Origin: a virus
Taxonomy: Duplodnaviria > Heunggongvirae > Uroviricota > Caudoviricetes
IMG/VR virus record: IMGVR_UViG_2671180360_000017
DNA length: 40,713 nucleotides
Reading direction: 5' to 3' (one strand)
The translations under genes and the position numbers were made by a program. Shown one piece after another: positions 6,937 through 39,781 of the stretch. Numbering within the stretch: the stretch's first letter is position 1; the number at the start of each line of letters is the position of its first letter. The notes under the pieces are model-generated. The model was not told where the DNA came from. It made no database searches and worked only from the letters and a program-made list of their open reading frames with translations.

Positions 6937-7790
6937 GCACCATCCTGAAATGGGCGGGTAATAAAACCGCCATTATGTCCGAACTGAAAAAATACCTTCC
7001 TGCTGGCCCGCGACTGGTTGAACCTTTCGCGGGTTCTTGTGCTGTGATGATGGCGACGGATTACCCCAGCTATCTGGTTGCGGATATTAATCCTGATTTA
7101 ATCAACCTCTATAAAAAGATTGCCGCTGATTGCGAAGCGTTTATATCTCGTGCCAAAGTTTTATTTGAGGAAGCAAACAGTGAGCTGGCTTATTACAACA
7201 TAAGACAGGAGTTTAATTACTCAACTGAAATTACTGATTTCATGAAAGCGGTATATTTCCTGTATCTCAATCGTCACGGTTACCGTGGTTTATGTCGCTA
7301 TAACAAGAGCGGGCATTTCAACATTCCCTACGGTAATTATAAAAATCCGTATTTCCCTGAAAAAGAAATTCGCGCATTTGCAGAAAAGGCCCAGCGAGCA
7401 ACGTTTATCTGCGCCAGCTTTGATGAAACGCTGGCGATGTTGAAGGCGGGGGATGTGGTGTATTGCGATCCGCCGTATGACGGTACGTTTTCCGGCTATC
7501 ACACTGACGGCTTCACTGAAGATGACCAGTATCACCTGGCATCTGTTCTTGAACATCGGTCATCAGAAGGACATCCGGTCATTGTTTCTAACAGTGACAC
7601 ATCCCTGATCCGTTCGCTGTATCGCAATTTTACTCACCACTACATCAAGGCAAAACGCAGCATCGGTGTGGCAGCTGGCGAGGGTAAATCAGCAACAGAA
7701 ATCATTGCTGTTTCCGGGCCGCGCTGCTGGGTGGGATTTGATTATTCGCGTGGCGTGGATAGTTCTGCCGTGTACGGAGTACGTGCATGA
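6933..7790 (+). CDS. dam: DNA adenine methyltransferase (Dam-like, orphan)
   Basis: N-terminal KWAGNK S-adenosylmethionine-binding motif and DPPY catalytic motif; start taken at [11 protein letters not shown] (6933); no adjacent restriction endonuclease gene. Confidence 0.8.
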
Positions 7791-10201
7791 GTCATGCCGA
7801 TATGAACAACTGCTGCGGCTTTAACGAAGCTGCCGCATCGTTCTCATGGAACAGCCCGAAAAAGGCCATTAACCCTTATCTGGACCCGGTGGAAGTTGCG
7901 CCGGTTTCTACGCTTTCAAACCTGATCACTCTGTACGCTGCCGATAACGAGCAGGAACAGCTGCGCCGTGAGGCGCTGAGTGATCAGGTCTGGGAGCGTT
8001 ATTTCTTTAATGAATCCCGTGATCCTGTCCAGCGCGAAATGGAACAGGATAAGCTCATTAGTCGGGCAAAGCTGGCGCATGAGCAGCAGCGTTTTAATCC
8101 GGATATGGTCATTCTGGCGGACGTCAACGCCCAGCCTTCCCATATCAGCAAGCCGCTGATGCAACGTATTGAATACTTCAGCAGCCTGGGCAGGCCAAAG
8201 GCTTATTCCCGCTATTTACGTGAGACGATTAAGCCATGTTTGGAACGACTGGAGCATGTACGCGACAGTCAGCTATCTGCATCTTTTCGCTTTATGGCAA
8301 GCCATGAAGGGCTGGACGGCCTGCTGATCCTGCCTGAAATGAGTCAGGATCAGGTGAAACGCCTGTCCACCTTGGTAGCTGCGCATATGAGTATGTGCCT
8401 TGATGCCGCTTGTGGCGATTTGTATGCCACCGATGACGTTAAGCCAGAAGAAATCCGCAATACATGGGAAAGGGTGGCAGCGGAAACCCTGCGTCTGGAT
8501 GTCATCCCGCCTGCGTTTGAGCAACTCCGTCGGAAAAGAAACCGCCGTAAACCCGTGCCCTATGAACTCATTCCGGGTTCGCTGGCGCGTATGTTGTGCG
8601 CCGACTGGTGGTATCGGAAATTATGGAAGATGCGTTGCGAATGGCGGGAAGAGCAGTTGCGTGCAGTCTGCCTTGTCAGCAAAAAAGCATCTCCTTATGT
8701 CAGCTATGAAGCCGTGATGCATAAACGTGAGCAGCGCCGTAAGTCGCTGGAGTTTTTCCGTTCTCATGAACTGGTGAACGAAGACGGCGACACGCTGGAC
8801 ATGGAGGATGTGGTAAACGCCAGCAGCAGCAACCCAGCGCATCGCCGCAATGAGATGATGGCCTGTGTTAAAGGTCTGGAGCTTATCGCGGAAATGCGCG
8901 GTGACTGCGCCGTTTTCTACACCATCACCTGTCCGTCACGTTTCCATTCCACGCTAAACAACGGCAGGCCCAACCCAACCTGGACAAATGCGACGGTAAG
9001 ACAAAGCAGTGATTATCTGGTCGGCATGTTTGCTGCATTTCGTAAGGCGATGCACAAAGCCGGATTGCGGTGGTATGGCGTGCGGGTGGCTGAGCCGCAT
9101 CATGACGGTACAGTTCACTGGCACCTGTTGTGTTTTATGCGCAAAAAAGACCGCCGCACCATCACTGCATTACTGCGTAAGTTTGCCATCCGTGAAGACC
9201 GCGAGGAGCTGGGCAATAACACTGGGCCGCGCTTTAAGTCTGAGTTGATTAACCCGCGCAAAGGTACGCCAACAAGCTACATCGCGAAATACATCAGTAA
9301 GAACATTGACGGGCGTGGTCTGGCTGGCGAGATCAGCAAGGAAACGGGGAAATCCCTGCGTGATAATGCTGAATACGTTAATGCCTGGGCGTCTCTGCAT
9401 CGTGTTCAGCAATTCCGCTTCTTTGGCATTCCGGGGCGTCAGGCTTACCGTGAACTGCGATTGCTGGCTGGTCAGGCGGCAAGGCAACAGGGGGACAAAA
9501 AAGCAGGTGCGCCGGTACTGGATAACCCGCGCCTTGATGCCATTCTGGCTGCTGCTGATGCTGGTTGTTTTGCCACCTACATCATGAAGCAGGGTGGCGT
9601 ACTGGTTCCCCGCAAATATCACCTCATCAGAACTGCTTATGAAATCAACGAAGAGCCGACCGCCTATGGCGATCACGGCATTCGTATTTATGGCATCTGG
9701 TCACCTATTGCAGAGGGCAAGATCTGCACTCATGCCGTGAAGTGGAAAATGGTTCGTAAGGCCGTTGACGTTCAGGAGGCGGCAGCCGACCAGGGCGCTT
9801 GCGCCCCTTGGACTCGTGGCAATAACTGTCCCCTTGCTGAAAATTTGAACCAACAAGGGAAAGACAAATCAGCTGATGGGGATACCAGGACGGACATTAC
9901 CCGCATGGATGACAAGGAGTTGCACGATTACCTGCACAGTATGAGCAAAAAAGAGCGCCGGGAACTGGCTGCAAGGTTACGCCTGGTGAAACCGAAACGG
10001 CGTAAAGACTACAAACAGCGAATTACAGACCATCAGCGACAGCAGCTCGTCTATGAACTGAAGTCCAGAGGATTTGATGGCAGCGAGAAAGAGGTCGATT
10101 TACTCCTTCGCGGCGGCAGTATTCCGTCAGGAGCAGGCCTGCGTATCTTCTATCGGAACCAGCGTTTGCAGGAAGATGATAAGTGGCGAAACCTGTATTA
10201 A
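7787..10201 (+). CDS. A: Replication initiation protein gpA (rolling-circle nickase)
   Basis: 804 aa ORF at the P2 gene A position; tyrosine-containing motif [12 protein letters not shown]; overlaps the dam stop. Confidence 0.85.
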
Positions 10202-10354: not shown

Positions 10355-10543
10355 ATGCAGGACTATTTTTTGGAGTCTTTGAAGCTCCAGCGCATTGATT
10401 TTTTTCTTAAGCTTGTAGCGGCTAGTGAGTGTAGTGATGAAGAGAAGGGGCTGGCTTTGCAGTGGGTTTCTGAACTGACAGATGAACTCATGGCAAAAAT
10501 CAGAACCCACGAATACAACCGCTCAATGGATGTCATCAGCTGA
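10355..10543 (+). CDS. Small SOS-controlled protein (62 aa), possible Tum-like antirepressor
   Basis: ATG preceded by an aggagg RBS, directly downstream of the LexA box; function inferred only from position (186 tum is LexA-controlled). Confidence 0.45.
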   Translation: MQDYFLESLKLQRIDFFLKLVAASECSDEEKGLALQWVSELTDELMAKIRTHEYNRSMDVIS

Positions 10544-10553
10544 GGTGACTTTT

Positions 10554-10787
10554 ATGCGCATTGAAATAATGATCGATAAAGAGCAGAAGATTAGCCAGTC
10601 TACCCTGGATGCCCTTGAATCCGAGCTTTACCGCAATCTGCGCCCCCTGTATCCCAAAACGGTAATTCGTATCCGCAAAGGTAGCTCTAACGGTGTGGAA
10701 CTGACCGGACTGCAACTGGACGAAGAAAGAAAACAAGTGCTGAAAATTATGCAGAAGGTGTGGGAAGACGACTGCTGGCTGCATTGA
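10554..10787 (+). CDS. DinI-family protein
   Basis: 77 aa beginning MRIEIMIDK and ending WEDDCWLH, closely resembling E. coli DinI; gaggtg RBS. Confidence 0.75.
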   Translation: MRIEIMIDKEQKISQSTLDALESELYRNLRPLYPKTVIRIRKGSSNGVELTGLQLDEERKQVLKIMQKVWEDDCWLH

Positions 10788-10923
10788 TAGGTTTCGTTTG
10801 TAATGAGTCATGTTTTTTGAGTCCGATAGTAGACAGCTAGAGGGATAAATGATTAATAGATAGATTAAACATAGTGATGGGCGTAAAATCGCGCGCATTT
10901 TATTGGCAACGGATCTGAACTCA

Positions 10924-11817
10924 ATGGCGGATAAGACTCAATCAGTAAGTATTGTGTATCAAGGCAAAGCTCTCGACGATCATAAGATGGATATTCTTTC
11001 GTTTGCGAAAAGTTTGCAGGGGCTAGGTGAGGCTATCTACTCTGCAAATGAGATTGTAAACGGAGGGCGAGACATTGAAGTTAACGTTGACGCTGAATTG
11101 ATAGCCGGTTCCTTTGGGTTTGATATTGAGGTTGTACAACATCTAGCTAATGCTAAAGATGTTGTACAAATTTTAGGTTTGTCAGCCATTCCTTTAGCCG
11201 TTGGCGGTGCTACAGTTTTAGAGGTTCTCAAGAAGCTTAACGGGCGTAAGATCGACATAGTCGAGAAAGCTAACGGTAGTGACAAAGTTAAGCTGAAAGT
11301 CGATGGTGAAGAGATTGTTTGCTCTGAAGATGTCGAAAAAATCGTTAATGCCCCAGAGATTCGTAAGGCTGTTGACGCGTTTGTCAGACAGCCTCTGTTA
11401 CAAGATGGTATCGACAATTTTGTGGTAAAAAAATCGCGCACCTCTAAGAAAGAAATCCTCAAAATTCATAAAGATGAGGCAGAAGAGTTTAAGTCGCCAA
11501 AAGTTCTCTTTGAAACCAAAGAAGAAGTTGACGAATTTGAAACAACCGTGACATTCGTTTCGGCGCATACTGACAAAAAAAGTGGCTGGCGTGTTGAGTT
11601 TGGCGGTGAAAAGCGCAATGTCAGAATGGAAGATAATGAGTTCATCAAGCTTGTTACTGGACCAGACGCCCCCAAAATTTTTGGCGAATTGTTTGCTGTG
11701 AAGATGAAGAAAATTGTGAAAGATTCCGGTGGCCAGGTAGACGAAAAGTTATCGATCATCAAAGTGGGTCGACACTTTGCCGCCAAAGATAGAAAAATAA
11801 AACCTGATGCGGATTAA
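10924..11817 (+). CDS. Hypothetical soluble protein (297 aa from ATG 10924; 304 aa if the TTG at 10903 is used), first gene of the AT-rich cargo operon
   Basis: Long uninterrupted ORF in AT-rich DNA between dinI-like gene and the cos region; highly charged K/E/D-rich; no recognisable motif. Confidence 0.6.
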   Translation: MADKTQSVSIVYQGKALDDHKMDILSFAKSLQGLGEAIYSANEIVNGGRDIEVNVDAELIAGSFGFDIEVVQHLANAKDVVQILGLSAIPLAVGGATVLEVLKKLNGRKIDIVEKANGSDKVKLKVDGEEIVCSEDVEKIVNAPEIRKAVDAFVRQPLLQDGIDNFVVKKSRTSKKEILKIHKDEAEEFKSPKVLFETKEEVDEFETTVTFVSAHTDKKSGWRVEFGGEKRNVRMEDNEFIKLVTGPDAPKIFGELFAVKMKKIVKDSGGQVDEKLSIIKVGRHFAAKDRKIKPDAD

Positions 11818-11819
11818 AA

Positions 11820-12083
11820 ATGTCTATAGATATTAGTGTGTTAGGATGGTTGGGGCTGCTTGTTGCAGCTCCAGCTATATTTATAGGTGCTAGAGTGGCT
11901 ATACGTAGCCTGCTCGATCGAGTTATTGTCGAAACAAAAGTTTCTATCACTTATACTGATGCAAACAAAAATGTCTATAAAACAAATATTTATATAAACA
12001 ATGATGATGAGTTAATAAAGCTCATCGATGATATAGCAGAGAAAAATAAGCGTGAGAGGAAGGAGTCAGCCTCTCATGCCTGA
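11820..12083 (+). CDS. Small membrane protein (87 aa, one N-terminal transmembrane helix)
   Basis: Starts 3 nt after the previous stop; hydrophobic segment VLGWLGLLVAAPAIFIGARVAI followed by a charged tail. Confidence 0.55.
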   Translation: MSIDISVLGWLGLLVAAPAIFIGARVAIRSLLDRVIVETKVSITYTDANKNVYKTNIYINNDDELIKLIDDIAEKNKRERKESASHA

Positions 12084-12492
12084 ACAAAAGAAAACAAGCG
12101 GTAAAGCAGTCGGTGTTACAGGTGGCGGCGGTGTAGGCCTTTTCCTAATAAAGCTGGCTAGCTTCATTACAGATCCAACATGGAAAGACCTTTACATTGC
12201 TTCAATACCGATGGTGTCAATTCTTTTAAGCGAAGTTTTTACTTTTGCATGGACGATTTATGCTGTTGATCCGCAAGAAATCAAACTGAAAAGGCGGTTG
12301 AAGGCTCTGAAGAAGCAAGCCGAAGCAGTTTTAAATGCACCATCGTCCCCTGTTTCTCCAGAAATGCGAGAGAAAGCGCAGGCTCGTTACGACGTGATCT
12401 GTGGAATTGAAATGGGAATTTACCCCCTCTCAATTGTAAATACGCTAGATGGAAAAGTATCCCCCACAGCGCAAACGCCGGACGTTAAATAG
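12076..12492 (+). CDS. Small membrane protein (138 aa, two predicted transmembrane helices)
   Basis: aggaagga RBS upstream of ATG 12076, overlaps the previous gene end; hydrophobic segments GVGLFLIKLASFI and IASIPMVSILLSEVFTFAWTIYAV. Confidence 0.55.
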   Translation: MPEQKKTSGKAVGVTGGGGVGLFLIKLASFITDPTWKDLYIASIPMVSILLSEVFTFAWTIYAVDPQEIKLKRRLKALKKQAEAVLNAPSSPVSPEMREKAQARYDVICGIEMGIYPLSIVNTLDGKVSPTAQTPDVK

Positions 12493-12553
12493 CAGTTTCT
12501 ACTTTGCATGACTATGCTGCATGAAATCGCATGATCGTTTGAGGATCGTTTTT

Positions 12554-12586
12554 GCAAAAGCCCGCCAGAACTGGCGGGCTTTTGCG
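12554..12586. terminator. Rho-independent terminator (possibly bidirectional) closing the three-gene cargo operon
   Basis: Perfect hairpin aaaagcccgccag / ctggcgggctttt flanked by A/T runs. Confidence 0.6.
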
Positions 12587-12628
12587 TAGAGCATGCATCT
12601 GCATGAAAACCACTACATAAAGCGGGCA

Positions 12629-12647
12629 GGCGTGGCGGGGATACGAG
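12629..12647. other. Candidate cos site (19 nt cohesive-end sequence)
   Basis: GGCGTGGCGGGGATACGAG resembles the P2/186 cohesive end as I remember it (GGCGAGGCGGGGAAAGCAC / GGCGTGGCGGGGAAAGCAT); lies on the portal side of gene A as in P2. Confidence 0.3.
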
Positions 12648-12762
12648 CGCGCGCTGGTTAATTTATATGAGAACAATCTCATATAAATATTCGAGACAAG
12701 TTGCAAAAAAACGCGGAGCATTATATGTTTAGTAGCAAATTCTGAACGTTGAGAATATTAAA

Positions 12763-14031
12763 ATGGAAATTTTTGATACGAATGATATCTTTGGGCTCTC
12801 AAGAGATTTGCCACTTAATTACATTGAAAGACCTGATGTTGATTTCAAACTTAAACAGGAATTACAAGCAAAGAAACATATTGTTATTTACGGCAGTTCA
12901 AAGCAGGGTAAGACTTGCGTAAGAAAACACTGTATTAATTCTGATGATTATATTTTGGTGCAGTGTTCGAATCGTTCTGATGTATCTGAATTGAATGCAA
13001 GTATTTTAAAAAGAGCTGGATTCGAAATAACTCAGTCTACCAAGAAAGGTATTACGGGGAAAAATAAAATAATCGCATCAATAAAAACTTCTATTTTGGG
13101 TTTTGTGGCGAGTGCCGGAGGCGAGATCGAAGATACGAAATCTCATGAACAAGTAACCGCGCCTTTAGAAATTGATGTTGATGATGTTAATGATGTTATA
13201 GCGGCTTTAAAATCTATAAATTTCAAGAAGATTATCGTTCTTGAGGATTTTCATTATATGCCTTTCGAAACTCAAAGAGATTTTTCGATCGCATTAAAAG
13301 CCTTTCATGAAACATCAAGCATTATTTTTGTAATTGTTGGAGTTTGGCTAGAAGATAATCGGCTCATTGTTTACAATGGTGACTTAACTGGCAGGATTAT
13401 TTCTGTTAACGCAGACAAATGGCAAGATTCTGAACTGGAGATGGCAATTGATAAAGGAGGTTTACTCCTTAACATTGATTTTGATCCAACTTTCAAAGCA
13501 GATGTAGTAACACACTGTCTCAATAGTATTTATTTAGTGCAAGAAGCATGTAGGCGTGCGTGTATTGAATGCGGAATATCAGAGACTCAGCAAACAAAAA
13601 GAACTATTGGAGCTGGTTTGGATGGAAAGGATATCATTGCAAAAATTGTTAATGACCAATCGGCTCGTTACAATTCTTTCCTTATTAATTTTTCAGATGG
13701 ATTTCAAGATACTGAACTTCAAATGCATAAATGGATTTTATATCCTGTCCTTTCATCAACCATTAGTGAACTTGAATTAGGTTTGAAATTTAAAGATATA
13801 AGGGCAATATTACAAAGTGTACATCCAAGAGGGGAGAAGTTAAACCTGGGTAATGTTACTCAGTCGTTACAATCAACGGCGTCTTTGCAAATAAAGAAAA
13901 ATATAATGCCTATTATTTTGGATTATGACCAAACAAATAGGAAACTGAATGTTGTTGATAAAGGCTTCCTAATATGGTTGCAACATCAAGATATCAAAGA
14001 TCTAAAGGATGATTTGGAGTTGCCAAATTAA
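12763..14031 (+). CDS. P-loop NTPase of unassigned family (422 aa), orphan cargo gene
   Basis: Walker A GSSKQGKT and Walker B-like IIVLEDFH; AT-rich; convergent with Q and separated from it by an inverted repeat. Confidence 0.7.
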   Translation: MEIFDTNDIFGLSRDLPLNYIERPDVDFKLKQELQAKKHIVIYGSSKQGKTCVRKHCINSDDYILVQCSNRSDVSELNASILKRAGFEITQSTKKGITGKNKIIASIKTSILGFVASAGGEIEDTKSHEQVTAPLEIDVDDVNDVIAALKSINFKKIIVLEDFHYMPFETQRDFSIALKAFHETSSIIFVIVGVWLEDNRLIVYNGDLTGRIISVNADKWQDSELEMAIDKGGLLLNIDFDPTFKADVVTHCLNSIYLVQEACRRACIECGISETQQTKRTIGAGLDGKDIIAKIVNDQSARYNSFLINFSDGFQDTELQMHKWILYPVLSSTISELELGLKFKDIRAILQSVHPRGEKLNLGNVTQSLQSTASLQIKKNIMPIILDYDQTNRKLNVVDKGFLIWLQHQDIKDLKDDLELPN

Positions 14032-14049
14032 TTCATGTCTTTATTATAG

Positions 14050-14078
14050 ATAATGGCGCCTATGTAGGCGCCATTATC
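14050..14078. terminator. Inverted repeat / bidirectional terminator between the NTPase gene and Q
   Basis: ataatggcgcc ... ggcgccattat palindrome between convergent genes. Confidence 0.45.
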
Positions 14079-15113
14079 TTAGAATTCAAGTGTATACGGT
14101 TTGAATTGGATTATATTCTCATTAGACCAACTATTTAATCCTTTTATTCTTTCCTGTAATGGTATTAGCTCATTCCTCACAAACACACAGCTAGCCTTTT
14201 CCACATCCCCAAATCCTCCAACATTATTAGGTATAATCCCCATCATTTGCGGTGGTACGCGGTGCGCAGCCATCATGTCATCGCGGCTGACATTTTTGAT
14301 ATTCAGAAACTCATCCTTCGCCGCAACTTCTGACAGAGGAATGATCTGAAGCCCATCCTTTTTGCCATTAGGTGAGTACATAAACAGGTTGCGGAAATTG
14401 CCTGGACCTTTGGCGCTTTTCATCGCGTTGCGGAGGTTGTTCACATCCTCCTGGTTCTGCGCCGCATCGGTCATGTACATGATGAAGCCTGCATGACTGC
14501 CGTTAATGTAATACTTGCGGCGGAACAGCGTGGCGGACTCGTTGAGCAAAGCGGATGGGATGGCAGAAAGATAGCCGGGCAGGCCGTAGATCTCCTGATT
14601 AATATCCGGTTCCATCAGATGAAAAATGCTGCCTTTCGTGAACTGATACGGCTGGGTTGTCATACCGTATTGCATAAACCAGTAGGTATCCAGGTCTAAC
14701 CCGCGTCGGGTGTATTTTGCCAGAGCAGGCTCAAGGGCTATAACTTCACCGAAGCGGTTCGTGCGTTTCTCCAGGTAGGCGTTACCAAATACCAGATAGT
14801 CCTGCACAAAACGTGAAAAAGCCTGCTGGCTGAGCAGCGGGTGAGGGATGTAGGTACTGGTCAGAATGTTGCATTTCACCGCAATTGGTGAGCTGTGATG
14901 CACGGCGGCGCGGAAGGTTCGTGCCAGTCCGTCAAAGCTGACGGGCGGCTCATACCAGCGATCCATCTGTACGCATTCCACATAGTCCAGCAGTTCACGG
15001 CGGTCCAGAACAGGAACGGGATCGCCAAAGCTGAATGCTTCGGCTGAAGTCTGGCTTTTATGCTTGAGCTGATTCGTCGCCGCAGCGCGGTTTTTCTTAC
15101 TCTTTCCCATCAA
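14079..15113 (-). CDS. Q: Portal protein gpQ
   Basis: 344 aa, same length as P2 Q as I recall it; first gene of the leftward late operon, followed by the terminase gene. Confidence 0.85.
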   Translation of the reverse strand: MMGKSKKNRAAATNQLKHKSQTSAEAFSFGDPVPVLDRRELLDYVECVQMDRWYEPPVSFDGLARTFRAAVHHSSPIAVKCNILTSTYIPHPLLSQQAFSRFVQDYLVFGNAYLEKRTNRFGEVIALEPALAKYTRRGLDLDTYWFMQYGMTTQPYQFTKGSIFHLMEPDINQEIYGLPGYLSAIPSALLNESATLFRRKYYINGSHAGFIMYMTDAAQNQEDVNNLRNAMKSAKGPGNFRNLFMYSPNGKKDGLQIIPLSEVAAKDEFLNIKNVSRDDMMAAHRVPPQMMGIIPNNVGGFGDVEKASCVFVRNELIPLQERIKGLNSWSNENIIQFKPYTLEF

Positions 15114-22863: not shown

Positions 22864-24732
22864 TTAATTTTCAATGCTTTGCTTTAATTTATCTATTGCG
22901 GGAGTTAAACAATCATTTATGAGCTCATCGATTTGTAATGATAATATATTTGAGTTTATTTGAGTTTTCTTTTCAATTAGCTTTCTAATTAGCTCACGGT
23001 GGAAAAAACGCTCTGCAGAAAGCTCTTTTAGATAAGGGGAGTTGTTGTATCGGTTTTTTATAGCATAGCCAAAGAAATGCATCTCGGTTGAGTCTACCAG
23101 TATTTTTGTTAGTTGTTCAGCATCACCAAAATAAAGAACTGGTTTGTCGTGAAATGAATAAATATCTTTGTTGTTGAAATTTAGATGTGCGTAATATTCA
23201 TGATTTCCGGCCTGTATTAATTTGAATATCTTTTGAGCGTCTTGGCTAAGTTGATATGCAATTAACACATTTTTCTTTTGTTCTATGTAATTAACAAGCT
23301 CCTTGAATTCCCTAGTTTCTTTGCAATGAAAAGTTAATCCTCCCCATCGCTCATCCTTAATGTCTTCATCAAAAATTTCATAACTAGTTTGTATCATTCC
23401 TTTTTCTGCTAAAATATCAACAGCAGAGTGGGCTAAGTTTGTTAAATAGTGTTCGTTGATGGGTTTTATGTGTTCTCTGGATAAATGAAGTAATAATCCG
23501 TAAATATGCTTAAGAACATGCTCGTTCAATATTTCAAAATTAATAAGCGTATGAAGTGTTGAATTGTAATTTTCCTCAAATTCTGTGTATTTTAATCGAT
23601 CATAATTCCAAAGTTGTGTCCATGGCTCAATTGTTTTATTAGAAACACTGACAAATGTTATTAATTCAGATATTATTTTTTCTTGATTGATTTTCTGATT
23701 GTCAATTATATCGATCCAGGTATCCTCGTCTAAGATTAAATTTGACAAATAAGTTGTACCATATTTTTCAATTAAATTGGATGTGTATTTATTATCATCA
23801 TCTATTTTATATGTTAACAAGTCAGAAACGGTTCGTTTTATTTTATTAGATTCAAAATAGAGTATAAAATGTAATTGATATAATCTGAGTGTCAAATCTG
23901 AATTTTGCTGAAACTGTGCTGGTAATATTTTGAATATTCTTTCAAAAAAAGAAATTTGCCTTTCAATTAATCTAATGTTATTACACTCTGAAAGAGTGAG
24001 TAAGCTCTCAATATTTTTTATGTTCAGAATGGTGTTGAGTTCGCTAGTTATATTTTTTAGAAAATATTCGTAGGCGTGAGAATGTTGAGGTTGATATTTG
24101 AAAGTTATACCTATAACTTTTTCTTTTGCATCTAAATAAATACCATCATGATTTTTATTTCTAGCGGGGTTTAATATTTCTCTCTCATTGGCGATAATCA
24201 AAACCTTGCATTCTTTTTCTTCAACGAAATTATTTATATAACCAAATATAGAATTCCAATCTAATTCGCAGCGTTCAAGATCATCAAATATCAATATGGT
24301 GTTTTCTGGTGAGTAGTAAAAGTCTTTAATACTTACGTTGGGTAGTTCTGGGGAGCCCTCTACACTTGTAACGAATGAATCACTTAAATCAATCTTAAGT
24401 GTGCCTTTAATTAGTGCCTTAGTTAGTGTGCCAGCAAGCAACATGCCTTTAGATGAAAGGAAGGGATGCATTTGCTTGAAAATTATTTCGTCAATTTGTT
24501 CGGTGGATTTTATTCCATATAATGAGATCATTAATGGCTTAACTTCCCCTTTTAGTGATTCTTCATTCATTAATTTACGGACAAACCATGTTTTCCCGCT
24601 TCCCCATTCGCCGTCAATCATTACTGCGAAATTAGGGGATTTTTCAAGACCCACTAAATAATTAAGATATGAGGTTAGCTCTTCATTGTAATTCATTGGA
24701 TTGTAAGACCCTTCATACAATTTGAAAATCAC
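22864..24732 (-). CDS. KAP-family P-loop NTPase (622 aa), antisense cargo gene between S and V
   Basis: Walker A GEWGSGKT (KAP-type GxWGxGKT) and Walker B ILIFDDLE; strongly AT-rich; opposite strand to the flanking late genes; alternative start at Met 13 (24696). Confidence 0.75.
   Translation of the reverse strand: MIFKLYEGSYNPMNYNEELTSYLNYLVGLEKSPNFAVMIDGEWGSGKTWFVRKLMNEESLKGEVKPLMISLYGIKSTEQIDEIIFKQMHPFLSSKGMLLAGTLTKALIKGTLKIDLSDSFVTSVEGSPELPNVSIKDFYYSPENTILIFDDLERCELDWNSIFGYINNFVEEKECKVLIIANEREILNPARNKNHDGIYLDAKEKVIGITFKYQPQHSHAYEYFLKNITSELNTILNIKNIESLLTLSECNNIRLIERQISFFERIFKILPAQFQQNSDLTLRLYQLHFILYFESNKIKRTVSDLLTYKIDDDNKYTSNLIEKYGTTYLSNLILDEDTWIDIIDNQKINQEKIISELITFVSVSNKTIEPWTQLWNYDRLKYTEFEENYNSTLHTLINFEILNEHVLKHIYGLLLHLSREHIKPINEHYLTNLAHSAVDILAEKGMIQTSYEIFDEDIKDERWGGLTFHCKETREFKELVNYIEQKKNVLIAYQLSQDAQKIFKLIQAGNHEYYAHLNFNNKDIYSFHDKPVLYFGDAEQLTKILVDSTEMHFFGYAIKNRYNNSPYLKELSAERFFHRELIRKLIEKKTQINSNILSLQIDELINDCLTPAIDKLKQSIEN
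24702..24719. promoter_or_regulatory. Ogr-type late-promoter site (TGT-N12-ACA) for the V operon (P_V)
   Basis: tgtaagacccttcataca about 45 bp upstream of the V start; lies within the first codons of the KAP ORF if its first ATG is used. Confidence 0.45.
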
Positions 24733-24764
24733 TATTTTCTTTTGATTTCATGCAAACTGCAACC

Positions 24765-25343
24765 ATGAACGCACAACTCACAGAAATCATGCGCCTTATC
24801 ACCAACCTGATCCGCACAGGTGTAGTCACCGAAGTGGACCGGGAAAACTGGCTTTGTCGGGTGAAAACGGGCGACCTTGAAACCAACTGGATTAACTGGC
24901 TGACGCTGCGCGCGGGTAATGCCCGCACATGGTGGCGACCATCGGAAGGTGAGCAGGTGGTGCTGCTGAGTCTGGGCGGCAATCTGGAAACCGCCTTTGC
25001 GCTGCCCGCTGTCTATTCGAATCAGTTCGCACCACCGTCGGCGTCGATGGACGCCTGTGTGACAGAACATCCTGACGGTGGCTGGTTTGAATACGAACCC
25101 GCTACCGGGCGCTGGTATGTCAGGGGAATCAAATCCATGGTCATTGAAGCTGCCGACAACATCACCCTGAAAACCAGTGAGTTTGTGCTGGAGGCCGACC
25201 GCACGCGTATTAACAGCGAAATGGTAATCAATGGTGGCGTTATCCAGGGCGGCGGTGCAATGAGTTCTAACGGAATTGTGGTTGATGCACATCAGCATAC
25301 TGGCGTCCTGAAAGGCGGCGACACAACCGGAGGCCCGGTATGA
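24765..25343 (+). CDS. V: Baseplate spike / assembly protein gpV
   Basis: N-terminus aligns with P2 V (LIRTGVVTEVD ... CRVKTG); alternative start at 24750. Confidence 0.8.
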   Translation: MNAQLTEIMRLITNLIRTGVVTEVDRENWLCRVKTGDLETNWINWLTLRAGNARTWWRPSEGEQVVLLSLGGNLETAFALPAVYSNQFAPPSASMDACVTEHPDGGWFEYEPATGRWYVRGIKSMVIEAADNITLKTSEFVLEADRTRINSEMVINGGVIQGGGAMSSNGIVVDAHQHTGVLKGGDTTGGPV

Positions 25344-27192: not shown

Positions 27193-28703
27193 GCACAAAA
27201 TTTTATACCCTGCTGACGGAGATTGGTGCGGCGAAACTTGCCAGCGCCACTGCACTTGGTGTGCCGCTTAAAATTACCCATATGGCGGTGGGGGATGGCG
27301 GTGGAGCATTGCCGACGCCGGACGCAAAGCAGACTGCACTGGTAAATGAGAAACGCCGGGCTGCGCTGAATATGCTCTATATCGACCCGCAGAACAGCAG
27401 TCAGATTATTGCTGAACAGGTGATCCCCGAAAACGAGGGCGGTTGGTGGATCCGTGAAGTGGGCCTGTTTGATGAATCAGGGGCATTGATTGCCGTCGGC
27501 AACTGCCCGGAAAGCTATAAGCCGCAACTGGCTGAAGGCAGCGGGCGCACCCAGACCGTGCGCATGGTGCTGATAACCAGCAGCACGGACAATATCACCC
27601 TGAAAATCGACCCTGCTGTAGTGCTGGCAACCCGCAAGTATGTGGATGACAAGGCACTGGAGCTGAAGGTGTATGTGGATGACCAAATGGCAAAACACCT
27701 TGCCGCAGCGGACCCACATTCACAGTATGCGCCAAAATCCAGCCCGACATTTACTGGAACCCCCAAAGCGCCAACGCCAGCGGAGGGGAATAACACCACG
27801 CAGATTGCGACCACCGCGTTTGTTCAGGCGGCACTGCTGGCCCTTATTAATGGTGCGCCAGCCACACTGGATACGCTGAAAGAAATTGCCGCTGCCATTA
27901 ATAATGACCCGAAATTCAGTACCACCATTAACAATGCGCTGGCACTGAAAGCGCCGCTGTCAAGTCCGGCACTCACCGGAACGCCAACAGCCCCCACTGC
28001 CGCACAGTCGGTTAACAATACACAGATTGCCACCACGGCTTTTGTGAAATCGGCAATTGCGGCAATGGTGGGGTCTGCACCTGCTGCACTGGATACACTG
28101 AACGAACTGGCTGCGGCGCTGGGGAATGACCCGAACTTTGCCACGACAATGCTTAATGCGCTGGCAGGTAAACAACCGCTGGACAATACGCTGACTAATT
28201 TGAGTGGAAAGGATGTAGCTGGTCTTCTCGCATACCTTGGTTTGGGAGAAGGTTCGGTGTTACCCGTTGGTGTGCCTGTTCCGTGGCCTGCAGCCACTCC
28301 GCCAACAGGCTGGCTGAAATGCAATGGTGCGGCTTTTTCTGCTGAAGAATACCCAGAACTGGCAAAGGCTTACCCGACAAATAAATTGCCTGATTTACGT
28401 GGTGAGTTTATGCGTGGCTGGGATGATGGAAGAGGCGTTGATAGTGGCAGGGGGATTCTCACTGCGCAATCTCATGGTATGCCGTCTATTTCAGGAACGT
28501 TTAATGGTCTTTTTGCTGTTAAACAAACAAATGGTTTAGGTGGTGTTTCTGTAGCAAAAAGTACAAATGCTGAAACTTTATCTACTTCATCTGGATCAGG
28601 TTCCGTGTTTGATTACACGTTTAATGTCAGCGGTTCGACTCCGGTATCACCAGAACTTCGTCCGCGTAATATTGCATTTAACTATATCGTGAGGGCCGCA
28701 TAA
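27189..28703 (+). CDS. H: Tail fibre protein gpH (constant N-terminal part plus variable C-terminus Hv1 as currently assembled)
   Basis: 504 aa; the C-terminal 150 aa after the crossover site show the Mu S / P1 S-type motif GWLKCNGAAFSAEEYPELAKAYPTNKLPDLRGEF. Confidence 0.85.
   Translation: MSTKFYTLLTEIGAAKLASATALGVPLKITHMAVGDGGGALPTPDAKQTALVNEKRRAALNMLYIDPQNSSQIIAEQVIPENEGGWWIREVGLFDESGALIAVGNCPESYKPQLAEGSGRTQTVRMVLITSSTDNITLKIDPAVVLATRKYVDDKALELKVYVDDQMAKHLAAADPHSQYAPKSSPTFTGTPKAPTPAEGNNTTQIATTAFVQAALLALINGAPATLDTLKEIAAAINNDPKFSTTINNALALKAPLSSPALTGTPTAPTAAQSVNNTQIATTAFVKSAIAAMVGSAPAALDTLNELAAALGNDPNFATTMLNALAGKQPLDNTLTNLSGKDVAGLLAYLGLGEGSVLPVGVPVPWPAATPPTGWLKCNGAAFSAEEYPELAKAYPTNKLPDLRGEFMRGWDDGRGVDSGRGILTAQSHGMPSISGTFNGLFAVKQTNGLGGVSVAKSTNAETLSTSSGSGSVFDYTFNVSGSTPVSPELRPRNIAFNYIVRAA
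28225..28250 (+). repeat. hix/gix-like 26 bp invertase crossover site A, inside H
   Basis: TTCTCGCATACC TT GGTTTGGGAGAA; imperfect dyad resembling hixL (TTCTTGAAAACCAAGGTTTTTGATAA); inverted-repeat identity starts at its central TT. Confidence 0.6.
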
Positions 28704-29305
28704 TGAATAATGCAGAATTAAATAGTGAATTGATTGCTACTGCGGCAGGGAATATTACCGTTTATAACTATGATTGTGAAACACGAGAATATATTTCCAC
28801 ATCAACTGAATATCTTGCTGTGGGTGTCGGTATCCCGGTATGTTCCTGTCTGGATACACCAGGTATACATAAGGCGGGTTATGCAATATGCCGCTCTGTG
28901 GATTTAAATTCATGGGAATATGTGCCAGACCATCGAGGTGAAATTGTCTATAGCACCGAAACGGGAGATACCAAAGAAATCACAGTGCCAGGCGACTATC
29001 CCGAAAATACAACCACTATCGCCCCGTTAACGCCATACGATAAATGGGATGGTGAGAAATGGGTGACCGATATTGAGGCACAGCATAGCGCCGCAGTAGA
29101 CGCGGCAGAAGCGCATCGCCAATCGCGGATTGATGCTGCAATGGCTTCCATCAGTCTGATTCAGCTGAAATTGCAGGCCGGACGTAAACTGACGCAGGCA
29201 GAAACAACCCGGCTTAACGCTGTGCTGGATTACATTGACGCGGTGGTGGCAACAGATACCAGCACCGCGCCGGATGTCATCTGGCCTGAACTACCGGAGG
29301 CGTAG
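28703..29305 (+). CDS. G: Tail fibre assembly protein (Tfa / gpG-like), copy 1
   Basis: 200 aa with the Tfa C-terminal motif DTSTAPDVIWPELP; immediately follows H. Confidence 0.8.
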   Translation: MNNAELNSELIATAAGNITVYNYDCETREYISTSTEYLAVGVGIPVCSCLDTPGIHKAGYAICRSVDLNSWEYVPDHRGEIVYSTETGDTKEITVPGDYPENTTTIAPLTPYDKWDGEKWVTDIEAQHSAAVDAAEAHRQSRIDAAMASISLIQLKLQAGRKLTQAETTRLNAVLDYIDAVVATDTSTAPDVIWPELPEA

Positions 29306-29738
29306 GCCATTCAATATCTGGAGCACTGGAAATATCGACCATTTCCAGTGCATCCAGATAATCCAGCCACAAATTATATTGTGCCAGTTCCTCACCTTTC
29401 AGACGACCGATAGCTGCTTTACCAGGCCATTGCTTACCGTTCATGTATTCGTTGGCATGGTCAATTCTCGACTTTTTCTCTGAGTCAGCCGCAGCAAGTT
29501 GTTCTTTATGCGTAGGTGACGGAAGATCTACCCAGCAAGGCAACCCATCATCACCAATGCCACGCATTTTACCCTCAGGAGCGTTTCCCATGAAAACCAG
29601 TGCATCTTCAGCATCTATATTGATGCCGTCTGACGGCCATGTGCCAGCAGTTAAATAATCATATTTCAGTGCCACAAGATAAAAAGCATTTTCCGTCGGG
29701 CTGAATACATAGTCGACCATTAATATCCCACCCCCCAT
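29277..29738 (-). CDS. Second-type tail fibre assembly protein (153 aa), inverted copy
   Basis: Tfa C-terminal motif DISSAPDIEWPTPP; identical to 30184-30645 on the other strand. Confidence 0.7.
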   Translation of the reverse strand: MGGGILMVDYVFSPTENAFYLVALKYDYLTAGTWPSDGINIDAEDALVFMGNAPEGKMRGIGDDGLPCWVDLPSPTHKEQLAAADSEKKSRIDHANEYMNGKQWPGKAAIGRLKGEELAQYNLWLDYLDALEMVDISSAPDIEWPTPPVVQAR

Positions 29739-29834
29739 ACTGCCACTGTTGAATTAGATTTCGTGTATGCGCAAGCGGCTTTGAATTTGACCCGGTCAAC
29801 AATCGCTGCGCTAACAAAAGGGGCTCCATTAGTC

Positions 29835-29860
29835 GCGTAGATCACATTGGTTTGGGAGAA
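29835..29860 (+). repeat. Crossover site B (conserved right half-site joined to non-consensus left flank)
   Basis: gcgtagatcaca TT GGTTTGGGAGAA; the right half is identical to site A, the left half is interior Hv2 sequence. Confidence 0.5.
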
Positions 29861-30202
29861 GCAGCGAAAATGCCTGCTGCGACAGCATTAGCCAGCAGTG
29901 CAGGTAACATCACTATTCCAGTATTAATTGGTGGAGTACAACGAACAGCATTGCTTCAGTGGAAGACGCTATCAGTGCCGCAATCTACCGACGGTAATAT
30001 GGTCGTTGTTGATGGCTCATGGCCGGTTGCCTTTCCTAATGCTTGCCTTTCCATCAATCCTTCGCTGGTAAATTCTGTGATCTACGCGACTAATGGAGCC
30101 CCTTTTGTTAGCGCAGCGATTGTTGACCGGGTCAAATTCAAAGCCGCTTGCGCATACACGAAATCTAATTCAACAGTGGCAGTATGGGGGGTGGGATATT
30201 AA
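29861..30202 (+). CDS. Promoterless alternative tail-fibre C-terminal cassette Hv2
   Basis: Frame is continuous with the LGLGE codons of the crossover site, so fusion to H constant would give a 111 aa alternative C-terminus; followed by its own tfa. Confidence 0.55.
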   Translation, partial: AAKMPAATALASSAGNITIPVLIGGVQRTALLQWKTLSVPQSTDGNMVVVDGSWPVAFPNACLSINPSLVNSVIYATNGAPFVSAAIVDRVKFKAACAYTKSNSTVAVWGVGY

Positions 30203-30645
30203 TGGTCGACTATGTATTCAGCCCGACGGAAAATGCTTTTTATCTTGTGGCACTGAAATATGATTATTTAACTGCTGGCACATGGCCGTCAGACGGCATC
30301 AATATAGATGCTGAAGATGCACTGGTTTTCATGGGAAACGCTCCTGAGGGTAAAATGCGTGGCATTGGTGATGATGGGTTGCCTTGCTGGGTAGATCTTC
30401 CGTCACCTACGCATAAAGAACAACTTGCTGCGGCTGACTCAGAGAAAAAGTCGAGAATTGACCATGCCAACGAATACATGAACGGTAAGCAATGGCCTGG
30501 TAAAGCAGCTATCGGTCGTCTGAAAGGTGAGGAACTGGCACAATATAATTTGTGGCTGGATTATCTGGATGCACTGGAAATGGTCGATATTTCCAGTGCT
30601 CCAGATATTGAATGGCCTACGCCTCCGGTAGTTCAGGCCAGATGA
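30184..30645 (+). CDS. Second-type tail fibre assembly protein (153 aa), partner of Hv2
   Basis: Tfa motif; overlaps the Hv2 stop. Confidence 0.7.
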   Translation: MGGGILMVDYVFSPTENAFYLVALKYDYLTAGTWPSDGINIDAEDALVFMGNAPEGKMRGIGDDGLPCWVDLPSPTHKEQLAAADSEKKSRIDHANEYMNGKQWPGKAAIGRLKGEELAQYNLWLDYLDALEMVDISSAPDIEWPTPPVVQAR

Positions 30646-31219
30646 CATCCGGCGCGGTGCTGGTATCTGTTGCCACCACCGCGTCAATGTAATCCAGCAC
30701 AGCGTTAAGCCGGGTTGTTTCTGCCTGCGTCAGTTTACGTCCGGCCTGCAATTTCAGCTGAATCAGACTGATGGAAGCCATTGCAGCATCAATCCGCGAT
30801 TGGCGATGCGCTTCTGCCGCGTCTACTGCGGCGCTATGCTGTGCCTCAATATCGGTCACCCATTTCTCACCATCCCATTTATCGTATGGCGTTAACGGGG
30901 CGATAGTGGTTGTATTTTCGGGATAGTCGCCTGGCACTGTGATTTCTTTGGTATCTCCCGTTTCGGTGCTATAGACAATTTCACCTCGATGGTCTGGCAC
31001 ATATTCCCATGAATTTAAATCCACAGAGCGGCATATTGCATAACCCGCCTTATGTATACCTGGTGTATCCAGACAGGAACATACCGGGATACCGACACCC
31101 ACAGCAAGATATTCAGTTGATGTGGAAATATATTCTCGTGTTTCACAATCATAGTTATAAACGGTAATATTCCCTGCCGCAGTAGCAATCAATTCACTAT
31201 TTAATTCTGCATTATTCAT
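30617..31219 (-). CDS. Tail fibre assembly protein (Tfa / gpG-like), copy 2 (inverted)
   Basis: Identical to the 28703-29305 product. Confidence 0.7.
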   Translation of the reverse strand: MNNAELNSELIATAAGNITVYNYDCETREYISTSTEYLAVGVGIPVCSCLDTPGIHKAGYAICRSVDLNSWEYVPDHRGEIVYSTETGDTKEITVPGDYPENTTTIAPLTPYDKWDGEKWVTDIEAQHSAAVDAAEAHRQSRIDAAMASISLIQLKLQAGRKLTQAETTRLNAVLDYIDAVVATDTSTAPDVIWPELPEA

Positions 31220-31671
31220 TATGCGGCCCTCACGATATAGTTAAATGCAATATTACGCGGACGAAGTTCTGGTGATACCGGAGTCGAACCGCTGACATTA
31301 AACGTGTAATCAAACACGGAACCTGATCCAGATGAAGTAGATAAAGTTTCAGCATTTGTACTTTTTGCTACAGAAACACCACCTAAACCATTTGTTTGTT
31401 TAACAGCAAAAAGACCATTAAACGTTCCTGAAATAGACGGCATACCATGAGATTGCGCAGTGAGAATCCCCCTGCCACTATCAACGCCTCTTCCATCATC
31501 CCAGCCACGCATAAACTCACCACGTAAATCAGGCAATTTATTTGTCGGGTAAGCCTTTGCCAGTTCTGGGTATTCTTCAGCAGAAAAAGCCGCACCATTG
31601 CATTTCAGCCAGCCTGTTGGCGGAGTGGCTGCAGGCCACGGAACAGGCACACCAACGGGTAACACCGAACC
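31219..31671 (-). CDS. Silent inverted copy of the Hv1 tail-fibre C-terminal cassette
   Basis: Identical to the H C-terminus; no constant part upstream. The ORF track extension to 31725 is read-through into unique DNA. Confidence 0.6.
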   Translation of the reverse strand, partial: GSVLPVGVPVPWPAATPPTGWLKCNGAAFSAEEYPELAKAYPTNKLPDLRGEFMRGWDDGRGVDSGRGILTAQSHGMPSISGTFNGLFAVKQTNGLGGVSVAKSTNAETLSTSSGSGSVFDYTFNVSGSTPVSPELRPRNIAFNYIVRAA

Positions 31672-31697
31672 TTCTCCCAAACCAACGTTTATGAAAA
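31672..31697 (-). repeat. Crossover site C (inverted relative to A and B), next to the invertase gene
   Basis: TTCTCCCAAACC AA CGTTTATGAAAA on the plus strand; inner half is the reverse complement of the site A right half. Confidence 0.6.
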
Positions 31698-31752
31698 TGC
31701 AGAGATAATGGCTAACTGGCATCATCCCCGGTTTTTATTCAGGGGATTGATC

Positions 31753-32319
31753 ATGCTTATTGGCTATGTACGCGTGTCAACAAATGACCAGAACACCGAT
31801 TTGCAACGTAATGCACTGAACTGCGCGGGATGTGAGCGGATTTTTGAGGATAAAATCAGTGGCACTAAGTCCGACAGACCGGGGCTGAAAAAACTGCTCA
31901 GGACACTATCGGCAGGAGACACGCTGGTTGTCTGGAAGCTGGACAGGTTGGGGCGCAGTATGCGGCATCTTGTTACGCTGATAGAAGAGTTGCGTCAGCG
32001 TGGCGTGAATTTCCGAAGCCTGACTGACAGTATTGATACCAGCACCCCAATGGGCCGTTTCTTTTTTCATGTCATGGGGGCCCTGGCTGAAATGGAACGC
32101 GAACTGATAGTTGAACGTACCAGGGCAGGGCTGGCTGCAGCTCGTGCTAAAGGCAGAGTAGGTGGACGCCGTCCTAAGTTGACTACCGAACAGTGGGCAC
32201 AGATTGGGCGTTTACTCGAGGCCGGAGAATCAAGACAGCGTATTGCACTGATTTTTGATGTAGGCGTTTCTACCATTTATAGAAAATTTCCGGCAAATAA
32301 GAGCAATGAATCCCCCTGA
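31753..32319 (+). CDS. Serine DNA invertase (Hin/Gin/Cin/Pin family)
   Basis: Start at MLIGYVRVSTNDQ (catalytic Ser motif); very close to Salmonella Hin along the whole length including the C-terminal HTH; 188 aa. Confidence 0.85.
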   Translation: MLIGYVRVSTNDQNTDLQRNALNCAGCERIFEDKISGTKSDRPGLKKLLRTLSAGDTLVVWKLDRLGRSMRHLVTLIEELRQRGVNFRSLTDSIDTSTPMGRFFFHVMGALAEMERELIVERTRAGLAAARAKGRVGGRRPKLTTEQWAQIGRLLEAGESRQRIALIFDVGVSTIYRKFPANKSNESP

Positions 32320-39299: not shown

Positions 39300-39389
39300 T
39301 TCTTCGCAATGGAGAACTTTTAAGTTTGCAAAATGGAATAATGCGGTATCATTATTATGAATTTAGCAAAAATGGGGAGAACTCGAAAA

Positions 39390-39608
39390 ATGATGATTTG
39401 CCCACTGTGTGGAAGTGCCGCCCATACTCGCAGCAGTTTTCAGGTATCTTCATTGACCAAAGAGCGTTACAACCAGTGCCAGAACATTAACTGCAGCCAT
39501 ACTTTTGTTACCCATGAAACTTTTGTTCGTTCGATTGCAACGCCAAAAGAGTCAAATCCGGTTCAGCCGCATCCAATGAAATCAGGACAGGTGGCGCTCT
39601 CTCTTTGA
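39390..39608 (+). CDS. ogr: Ogr zinc-finger late-gene activator
   Basis: CPLCGSAAH ... CQNINCSHTF four-cysteine motif and overall similarity to P2 Ogr; start taken at MMICPLCG. Confidence 0.8.
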   Translation: MMICPLCGSAAHTRSSFQVSSLTKERYNQCQNINCSHTFVTHETFVRSIATPKESNPVQPHPMKSGQVALSL

Positions 39609-39631
39609 CGCTGCCGCCATTTTGTCGCCAT
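39609..39631 (+). repeat. 23 bp direct repeat, ogr-proximal copy (att core or Int arm-type site)
   Basis: cgctgccgccattttgtcgccat, 1 nt after the ogr stop; matches 2529-2551. Confidence 0.6.
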
Positions 39632-39693
39632 CGTTAAAAAACAGTGCTTCTAACATCATGATTTTAAACAGCTTAAATTTCAGGCAACAAAAA

Positions 39694-39781
39694 ACCCATC
39701 TTTATTGTAAATTTCAGCCGCATTTGCTGCGCCAGCAACTAATAACGCCGGGACCAGCATTGCCAGAACTTTTCTTTTCAT
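39694..39781 (-). pseudogene. yedS: Porin 5' fragment (start codon, signal peptide, first mature residues) separated from the rest of the gene by the prophage
   Basis: Minus-strand translation [29 protein letters not shown], then divergence into prophage DNA and a stop after four codons. Confidence 0.75.

Follow-up and report, generated by a model that had tools for sequence, protein, structure and literature searches.

The window analysed here is the whole 40,713-nt stretch of the IMG/VR virus record IMGVR_UViG_2671180360_000017 (Caudoviricetes), a P2-like prophage that carries a 422-aa ATPase gene between its cos site and its portal gene Q (coding sequence 12763..14031, + strand, ATG start). 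The product belongs to the PADLOC family PDC-S59, and we find it to be an intact AAA+ ATPase under strong selection that stands alone, is mobile, and occurs in cargo positions of both prophages and defence systems. It has neither a separate enzymatic effector domain nor a conserved partner gene. The reading that we favour, with a probability of about 0.5, is that the ATPase is a mobile single-protein anti-phage (or anti-mobile-element) module of the prophage. An earlier note on this DNA, made without database searches, had already raised an anti-phage role for what it called an orphan P-loop NTPase. That idea now has circumstantial support from the PDC-S59 assignment, from the location in the gpA-gpQ defence hotspot and from copies of the gene inside Hma systems, while the defence role itself stays at the level of a prediction.

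The open reading frame (ORF) has exactly the limits, strand and length given in the earlier note. At the gene's own base composition (34% GC), 422 codons without a stop would arise by chance with a probability of 4.5e-16, and the longest ORF in 500 segment shuffles reached 146 aa compared with 431 observed. The 31 homologues that were aligned start within a few residues of the ATG at 12763, which supports this codon as the start. The AT-richness remarked on before is borne out by comparison with the Q-P genes, which have 54% GC. In the database searches, the PDC-S59 hidden Markov model matches residues 5-411 on profile positions 4-405 of 428 (E 4.8e-72, 241 bits). Pfam returns only sub-threshold hits (AAA_22 at 21.3 bits with a cut-off of 27; TniB at 17.3 bits with a cut-off of 22.4), NCBIfam nothing meaningful, and PHROGs a weak match only. 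PDC systems are 145 predicted candidates, selected on the grounds that members lie nested in BREX, DISARM or type I restriction-modification loci (Payne et al. 2024 preprint). The ATPase is a full, single-gene member of PDC-S59, and the family is a prediction with no described fold or mechanism.

Conservation of the nucleotide-binding motifs establishes the protein as a true P-loop NTPase, as previously proposed from the strings GSSKQGKT and IIVLEDFH. The Walker A motif or P-loop, G44-S-S-K-Q-G-K-T51 (12892..12915, + strand), has G44, S46, K47, Q48, G49, K50 and T51 invariant among the 31 homologues, and in the broad family Q48, G49 and K50 do not change even in relatives with 26% identity. 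The Walker B strand and the motif that follows it, I157-I-V-L-E-D-F-H164 (13231..13254, +), correspond to a modelled strand at 157-161. V159-Y165 are invariant in the same alignment, and across the broad family F163 is invariant and H164 and Y165 are nearly so. The acidic pair is ED rather than the canonical DE. A third motif, N205-G-D-L-T-G-R211 (13375..13395, +), is a candidate arginine finger/Box VII by its conservation and by its modelled position before strand 5 (212-216); N205, L208 and R211 are invariant, and G206 and D207 nearly invariant, in the family down to 26% identity. The complete set that is invariant at this depth comprises Y20, R23, D27, Q48-G-K50, F163, W195, N205, L208, R211, W220, L236, Q376, P383 and D399. 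Four cysteines (C57, C68, C263 and C267) are invariant in the close family and make a candidate metal site; in the broad family only C68 and C267 are nearly invariant.

We placed the protein by structure, since a profile search of the PDB sequences gave no match at E up to 1 and the assignment comes from fold comparison alone. The AlphaFold2 model, built on the 31 homologues, has a pLDDT score (predicted local distance difference test) of 83.6 and a predicted template modelling (pTM) score of 0.76, and its sole disordered stretch is 109-131 (pLDDT <50). The model is a single AAA+ module with an N-terminal Y-x-x-R-x-x-x-D motif, a core that extends to residue ~235, a C-terminal helical lid (~236-339) and a winged helix (~340-410). 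Only 35 residues precede the P-loop strand, and the chain ends ~12 residues after the winged helix. Residues 87-137 (13021..13173, +) form an insertion in the core: a basic beta-hairpin (87-108, net charge +4, with modelled strands 87-95 and 101-107) followed by the acidic disordered loop 109-131. G99 and K102 of the insertion are invariant in the close family, and the segment is variable in the broad family. The lid (13468..13779, +; modelled helices within 242-339) includes the QEACRRAC helix with C263 and C267, and Q260, E261, C263, C267, Q299 and R302 are invariant among the 31 homologues. In the C-terminal winged-helix domain (13780..13992, +), the helices 343-353, 362-370 and 372-378 are followed by a hairpin (386-389 and 394-397). 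Q376, P383 and D399 do not vary across the broad family; the wing hairpin has D387 and D399 on either side, and residue 400 varies (K/R/L).

About 300 residues of the model can be superposed on 2qen and 2fna, two proteins that combine AAA+ with a winged helix. After these two, the highest fold-comparison scores are those of Cdc6/Orc1 (up to 15.0), the wheat NB-ARC resistosome (13.8), MuB (13.2), TnsC (12.7) and CED-4 (12.4), with MalT, BrxC and Avs3 among the further matches. Foldseek agrees, and the BFVD viral fold library returns clamp-loader-type AAA+ proteins only. The Walker motifs, the fold and the lid fit the Orc1/Cdc6-STAND region of the AAA+ superfamily. The C-terminal region of about 250 residues, which had been left unassigned as a possible sensor or effector domain, is therefore the remainder of the ATPase core, the lid and the winged helix, all within the part that superposes on the small archaeal ATPases. 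A structure prediction had been suggested as the way to look for a nuclease or other effector fold in the C-terminus; it gave the AAA+ fold, and no effector fold was found in the protein by Pfam, PADLOC or structure comparison. Inspection of the C-terminal part by eye found no PD-(D/E)xK, HNH or similar catalytic pattern. The model puts the invariant R211 directly in front of strand 5, at the site of the arginine finger in AAA+ proteins, and this position points to hydrolysis that would depend on assembly.

The gene is no orphan: more than 2,000 members of its family are spread over nearly all prokaryotic phyla. A word-indexed search gave >2,300 matches, and an exhaustive search gave 2,116 clusters at 50% identity with E up to 1e-3, 372 of which reach 1e-30; lengths are almost all 415-450 aa. 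A pattern-limited scan, whose species count is a lower bound, found the ATPase in about 220 of 185,579 species genomes at 47-62% identity. The carriers include Proteobacteria, Acidobacteria, Cyanobacteria, Firmicutes, Actinobacteria, Bacteroidota, Deinococcota, Chloroflexi, bacteria of the Candidate Phyla Radiation (CPR) and two haloarchaea. The GC content of the gene is below that of its flanks in 66 of 67 host species (median difference -13.7 points; 39% versus 69% in Halorubrum), and some nearest neighbours cross phylum borders: one copy from Roizmanbacteria and one from Ferrimonas share 78% identity, and cyanobacterial copies are among the closest relatives of the haloarchaeal ones. Low GC relative to the hosts and these cross-phylum neighbours together indicate repeated horizontal transfer. 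The ratio of non-synonymous to synonymous substitution rates (dN/dS) is 0.032 (dS 0.70), and synonymous sites reach saturation already in pairs with 91% protein identity. To evolve slowly and yet move so readily is not usual in a defence sensor, and this is our main reason for not treating the gene as a routine case. Among relatives we found no effector fusions, only an nSTAND3 NTPase in two proteins and a sub-threshold hydrolase match. The two proteins are distant relatives (P0240 and P0260, 791 and 860 aa) in which the extra N-terminal nSTAND3-type NTPase precedes the PDC-S59-like module, making a tandem double ATPase.

Within P2-like prophages, the ATPase gene is optional, horizontally mobile cargo. 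It lies between gpA (7787-10201) and gpQ (14079-15113), beside cos (12629-12647), in the gpA-gpQ interval that has been published as the defence hotspot of P2 (Rousset et al. 2022; NAR 2026 survey). The gene is present in 11 of 5,426 complete Escherichia coli genomes, at 98-99% nucleotide identity, while the adjacent cos block occurs in ~1,280 E. coli records, so that the ATPase is missing from >99% of E. coli P2-like prophages with the same cos block. No homologue was found at the protein level among 50,697 deposited phage records. These counts agree with the proposal that the gene is optional single-gene prophage cargo. Among IMG/VR prophage contigs, 12 carry the ATPase at 76-100% identity, most with the P2-like cos block and/or Q adjoining, and a plasmid protein search returned 8 records, mostly distant. 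The sequence left of cos differs among the E. coli carriers (a DUF4145 gene in APEC IMT5155, for example), and some E. coli genomes have the left-hand cargo of this window without the ATPase gene. The ATPase occupies the corresponding gpA-gpQ interval in P2-like prophages of Klebsiella (86% identity) and Serratia (76%). The Serratia locus has the cos block downstream of the ATPase gene and a HicAB pair in the cos-Q slot, so that cargo is seen to be exchanged on both sides of cos.

As hotspot cargo, the ATPase resembles other occupants in its place between gpA and gpQ beside cos, its variable presence, its AT-richness and the company of other candidates, and it differs in lying on the Q side of cos, where P2 has a terminator only. 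The P2 genes tin and old are presumably in the gpA-cos part of the hotspot. Table S5A of Rousset et al. contains the near-identical WP_000402159 under no other label than ‘hypothetical’ and with co-cargo that varies, and the ATPase is not among the hotspot systems reported as tested in the hotspot literature, where three of eight cloned P2-hotspot systems were active. The ATPase is thus already catalogued, both as a PDC-S59 member and as a P2-hotspot occupant, and is not categorically new. As far as we found, what appears undescribed for the family is its slow evolution across both domains, its lack of an effector or partner, and its recurrent adjacency to ribonucleotide reductase (RNR) genes.

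A conserved block of 152 bp (12505..12656) that is common to ~1,280 E. coli records and 47-88 phage records belongs to the backbone of P2-like phages and not to the cargo. It is also found in P2-like phages of Klebsiella, Salmonella, Yersinia and others, and it lies directly upstream of the ATPase gene in the E. coli and Klebsiella loci. The candidate cos site of the earlier note proves to be real. In Salmonella phage SEN8, the record stops at the equivalent of window position 12628, and the next 19 nt, GGCGTGGCGGGGATACGAG (12629..12647, + strand), equal the annotated P2 cosL at 14/19 positions, followed by the common GCGCGCTG and divergence beyond. The SEN8 end and the P2 alignment together place the predicted cohesive end (the cosL equivalent) at 12629-12647 and the start of cargo-specific sequence at ~12657. 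An exact or near-exact search for P2 cos (up to 3 mismatches) gave no match; the site differs at 5/19 positions. Left of the cohesive end the cos block continues for 124 bp, whereas toward Q it gives way to cargo after only ~28 bp (overhang included), and for this reason cos function seems to need at most ~28 bp on the Q side. In P2 the cosL-Q interval is 167 bp and holds only the tQ terminator, in line with the statement in the earlier note that P2 has no gene here, compared with 1,431 bp including the ATPase gene in this window. The short cos-Q interval is a second cargo slot in P2-like prophages, filled by the ATPase in E. coli and Klebsiella and by HicAB in Serratia (loci L018-L021 and L112). 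On the mature linear genome, no other gene would come between the left cohesive end and the ATPase gene.

Hairpins stand on both sides of the gene, as had been noticed. The first, inside the cos block (12554..12585), is a perfect 15-nt GC-rich stem with an A-tract and a T-tract, resembling a bidirectional terminator. The second (14048..14079), also a perfect 15-nt stem, lies between the ATPase stop and the stop codon of Q, which it abuts, and is the positional equivalent of the annotated P2 tQ terminator. The portal gene Q (14079..15113, - strand) is a backbone gene, annotated as ‘phage portal protein’ in near-identical E. coli loci, and is convergent with the ATPase gene as described earlier. 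The leader of the ATPase gene (12657..12762, +) is cargo-specific and is 100% identical only in loci that carry the gene. It contains a perfect 12-nt AT-rich palindrome at 12661-12688 (ATTTATATGAGA / TCTCATATAAAT) and a second near-palindrome at 12739-12756; these may be operator sites or a structural element.

Flanking ORFs of 80 species loci and 26 viral loci were clustered all-against-all, and no conserved partner gene emerged. The top neighbour family, an ABC transporter, is present in 9 of the 80 species loci at variable positions, which agrees with the gene having been described as a single-gene element, and the 26 viral loci, which represent a distant clade (~30% identity), have no general partner either. 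The recurring families (ABC transporters, histidine kinases, EAL proteins and epimerases) are simply common paralogues and were rejected as partners. At two loci in Clostridia-class genomes (L050 and L059), the ATPase lies exactly between hmaA and hmaB in the order HmaA-[ATPase]-HmaB-HmaC (PADLOC E = 0), in the same direction as both neighbours and with small gaps or overlaps to them. Members of the family therefore occur both embedded in a multi-gene defence system, at these two loci, and as a single-gene system, across the 80 species and 26 viral loci. Most of nine Hma-embedded candidates were active (Payne et al. 2024 preprint). At other loci its nearest neighbours are in some cases Mrr-like restriction enzymes, in others Pycsar-type TIR proteins or C5 methylases, and the Burkholderia glumae copy is in a different prophage, beside lysis genes.

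A further recurring context is that of RNR genes. The ATPase is directly downstream of nrdA-nrdB, on the same strand, in Pseudomonas aeruginosa, Stutzerimonas, Vogesella and a marine scaffold, and downstream of a class II RNR in three Acidobacteriaceae (RNR-linked loci: L002-L009, L024/L220, L194, L036, L065 and L069). The linked copies fall in three separate ATPase clades, so at least three independent placements are required and a single inherited event is rejected; chance would give ~0.1 such events, a figure that is a rough estimate and not a computed statistic. In the nrdB cases the ATPase start codon is ~18-30 bp after the nrdB terminator, which suggests that the gene may be expressed by read-through from nrdB. 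In Vogesella the ATPase is the sole inserted gene behind nrdB, and the Pseudomonas and Stutzerimonas site also has pyocin or restriction genes (an Mrr-like enzyme). Such placements are unusual for a defence gene, as are the 47-62% identity across phyla and the dN/dS of 0.03. The adjacency may reflect either an insertion hotspot or a regulatory or functional tie to deoxynucleoside triphosphate (dNTP) synthesis.

Comparison with characterised proteins shows that, relative to known AAA+/STAND defences, the ATPase is a stripped-down variant. Its likeness to the archaeal ATPases PABY2304 (2qen) and SSO1545 (2fna) is structural only, at 11-14% sequence identity, and the PF01637 profile gives no match to it in Pfam at E up to 1. 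It differs from these two proteins, which have no known function, by the extra hairpin-plus-loop insertion at 87-137. Orc1/Cdc6 proteins have a helical initiator-specific motif. The ATPase has a beta-hairpin as its insertion, no recognition surface of conserved basic residues is present on its winged helix, and the gene is accessory, horizontally mobile and outside any origin or replication context. Unlike the STAND immune NTPases (Avs, bNACHT, NB-ARC/CED-4 and nSTAND), it lacks both an effector at the N-terminus and a repeat sensor at the C-terminus, the parts that determine killing and sensing in those proteins; an invariant arginine occupies its AAA+ arginine-finger position, and it is far more conserved. 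No STAND NTPase family profile in Pfam matches it, and its distant relatives give weak sub-threshold matches to nSTAND1 and nSTAND6. Neither Pfam nor PADLOC detects a fused nuclease, TIR, SIR2 or protease effector. It is set apart from MuB, TnsC and TniB by scores below thresholds, by the lack of an adjoining transposase in the 80 species loci and by the added winged helix. With P2 Old it has in common that it is a single-gene P-loop protein in the prophage hotspot from which Old acts as an exclusion protein; Old, however, is an OLD-family ABC ATPase with a TOPRIM nuclease, and the protein here is AAA+ and has no nuclease. We found no Old, ABC-ATPase or TOPRIM match, and the stated non-resemblance to P2 Old stands.

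If the ATPase does protect the lysogen, we would expect it to be present at a low level in a nucleotide-bound, non-assembled resting state. A cue associated with infection would then be engaged through the winged helix and/or the inserted basic hairpin. Because the protein is so conserved, this cue would probably be an invariant molecule or state (a nucleic-acid structure, or the state of replication or of the nucleotide pool) and not a fast-evolving phage protein. Assembly would proceed through the AAA+ interface, with the invariant R211 completing the ATP site of the neighbouring subunit. The ATP-bound assembly would itself be the output, either by binding and blocking invader DNA or the replication/packaging machinery, or by consuming ATP/dATP, and no fused nuclease would be activated. 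A more specific and rather unlikely version holds that the protein is a novel type of immune or surveillance module, an effector-less AAA+ switch whose ATP-driven self-assembly is itself antiviral and which is tuned to an invariant signal of disturbed replication or nucleotide pools and not to a phage protein. It would explain together the RecA-like conservation between prophages of E. coli and haloarchaea, the missing partner and effector, and the repeated placement behind RNR terminators of two classes, as co-expression with dNTP synthesis.

Several points weigh against an anti-phage function. PDC-S59 is a predicted candidate family only, one of 145. Known AAA+/STAND defence proteins have effector and sensor domains and the ATPase has neither, which leaves the output step above a conjecture. 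Any DNA binding by the winged helix would be hypothetical, as the domain has only a slight basic charge (net +4) and Q, P and D, instead of K or R, occupy its invariant positions. The protein also evolves far more slowly than typical phage sensors, with 47-62% identity between E. coli and haloarchaea, and this pace fits a housekeeping-like interaction as well as it fits defence. Many copies of the gene stand among ordinary housekeeping genes, and a consensus scan found no sigma-70 promoter upstream of the copy in this window. No text mention of PDC-S59 or WP_000402159 was found in the literature. A search for PA1154 retrieved fungal gene names only, one for PF01637 with defence retrieved nothing, and the text supplements of the PDC paper do not contain the PDC-S59 label.

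Among the alternatives, the ATPase could be a sensor or adaptor only. It would detect infection and then recruit, remodel or activate a conserved factor of the host whose gene is located elsewhere (a nuclease, a protease or a replication protein, for instance), and the step that kills or blocks would not reside in the ATPase. We consider this improbable overall, yet it is the most credible of the alternatives: it would account for a protein without an effector domain and for the extreme conservation of its whole surface, as expected for docking on universally conserved machinery, and AAA+ kin (Cdc6/Orc1, clamp loaders and TnsC/MuB) typically load or position other proteins. It has to contend with the few protein machines that Bacteria, CPR bacteria and haloarchaea share, and with the lack of any partner encoded nearby in about 200 loci. 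Somewhat less probable still is a non-immune role, in which the ATPase would be a mobile accessory factor for DNA precursor supply or replication stress, expressed with RNR operons, and its presence in hotspots and defence loci would only reflect where mobile genes accumulate. The placements in three ATPase clades against the roughly estimated ~0.1 expected by chance, the start codons so close behind the nrdB terminator that little room is left for a promoter of their own, the solitary insertion in Vogesella and a housekeeping-like dN/dS of 0.03 all speak for such a role. Set against them, the gene is rare (the roughly 220 species genomes of the pattern-limited scan), it is AT-rich relative to almost every host, and most copies, including the one in this window, are far from RNR genes. 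The involvement of two RNR classes also argues against a specific enzyme partnership, and the Pseudomonas/Stutzerimonas site, with its pyocins and Mrr-like enzyme, may be an insertion hotspot.

Two further explanations have much less in their favour. The weak Pfam matches to AAA_22 and TniB and the frequent horizontal transfer could suggest a remnant or solo transposition or target-selection ATPase (TniB/TnsC/MuB-like), or some other selfish-element gene of no benefit to phage or host. We regard this as very unlikely and already refuted in large part, given that both Pfam scores are below threshold, that no transposase is beside the gene in the 80 species loci and that the structural matches to PABY2304, SSO1545 and Cdc6 are clearly stronger; decay is excluded by the dN/dS of 0.03 and by intact full length in >2,000 members. 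The position beside cos, Q and P would suit a conserved component of packaging or morphogenesis, an outcome that the earlier note had set against its own proposal. That explanation, which would place the gene in all related phages, is refuted: the gene is absent from most relatives, with the same cos block lacking it in nearly all E. coli P2-like prophages, no deposited phage genome encodes it at the protein level, P2 has no gene there, and homologues occur in non-phage contexts in all phyla.

The window has other features that are separate from the ATPase gene. To the left of cos, a DinI-like gene (10482-10787) precedes a gene for a 304-aa protein (10903-11817) that matches PADLOC PDC-S42 (E 8e-44), the NCBIfam ‘LAPAL motif’ family and phrog_3243. 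Two small ORFs without a database match follow it (87 aa, 11820-12083; 146 aa, 12052-12492), and the three genes may form a module (10903-12492). Among the late genes there is a third AT-rich island (22864-25298, 29% GC). Its - strand encodes a P-loop NTPase of the KAP family (622 aa; PADLOC PDC-S49, E 4e-135), and a further ORF of 188 aa in the island has no matches. Since PDC-S59, PDC-S42 and PDC-S49 are all present, this one prophage carries three separate predicted defence candidates. Further on, a 1,622-nt inverted repeat (28225-29846 / 30076-31697) has arms that are 100% identical and 229 nt apart. It spans the C-terminus of the tail fibre and two tail-fibre assembly genes, and a Hin/Gin-type serine invertase follows (31708-32319). 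Invertible tail-fibre segments normally carry different alternative ends, and the identical arms suggest recent gene conversion or an assembly artefact from a mixed-orientation population. After the late genes the GC content falls to 36-40% (39000-40713), and this right end may be one more slot for cargo, the region of the attachment site, or DNA of the host.

Should the ATPase gene prove to have no phenotype, it would be one more uncharacterised passenger of a known hotspot. If it is protective, it would be one of the smallest AAA+/STAND-like defences, working without a nuclease, NADase, pore or protease output, and could reveal a new effector principle. The recurrent link to RNR genes gives a concrete lead on its regulation or its trigger. 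Its conservation and its spread across Bacteria and Archaea make the family tractable for structural and biochemical work, and suggest that what it reads is a universal feature of infection.

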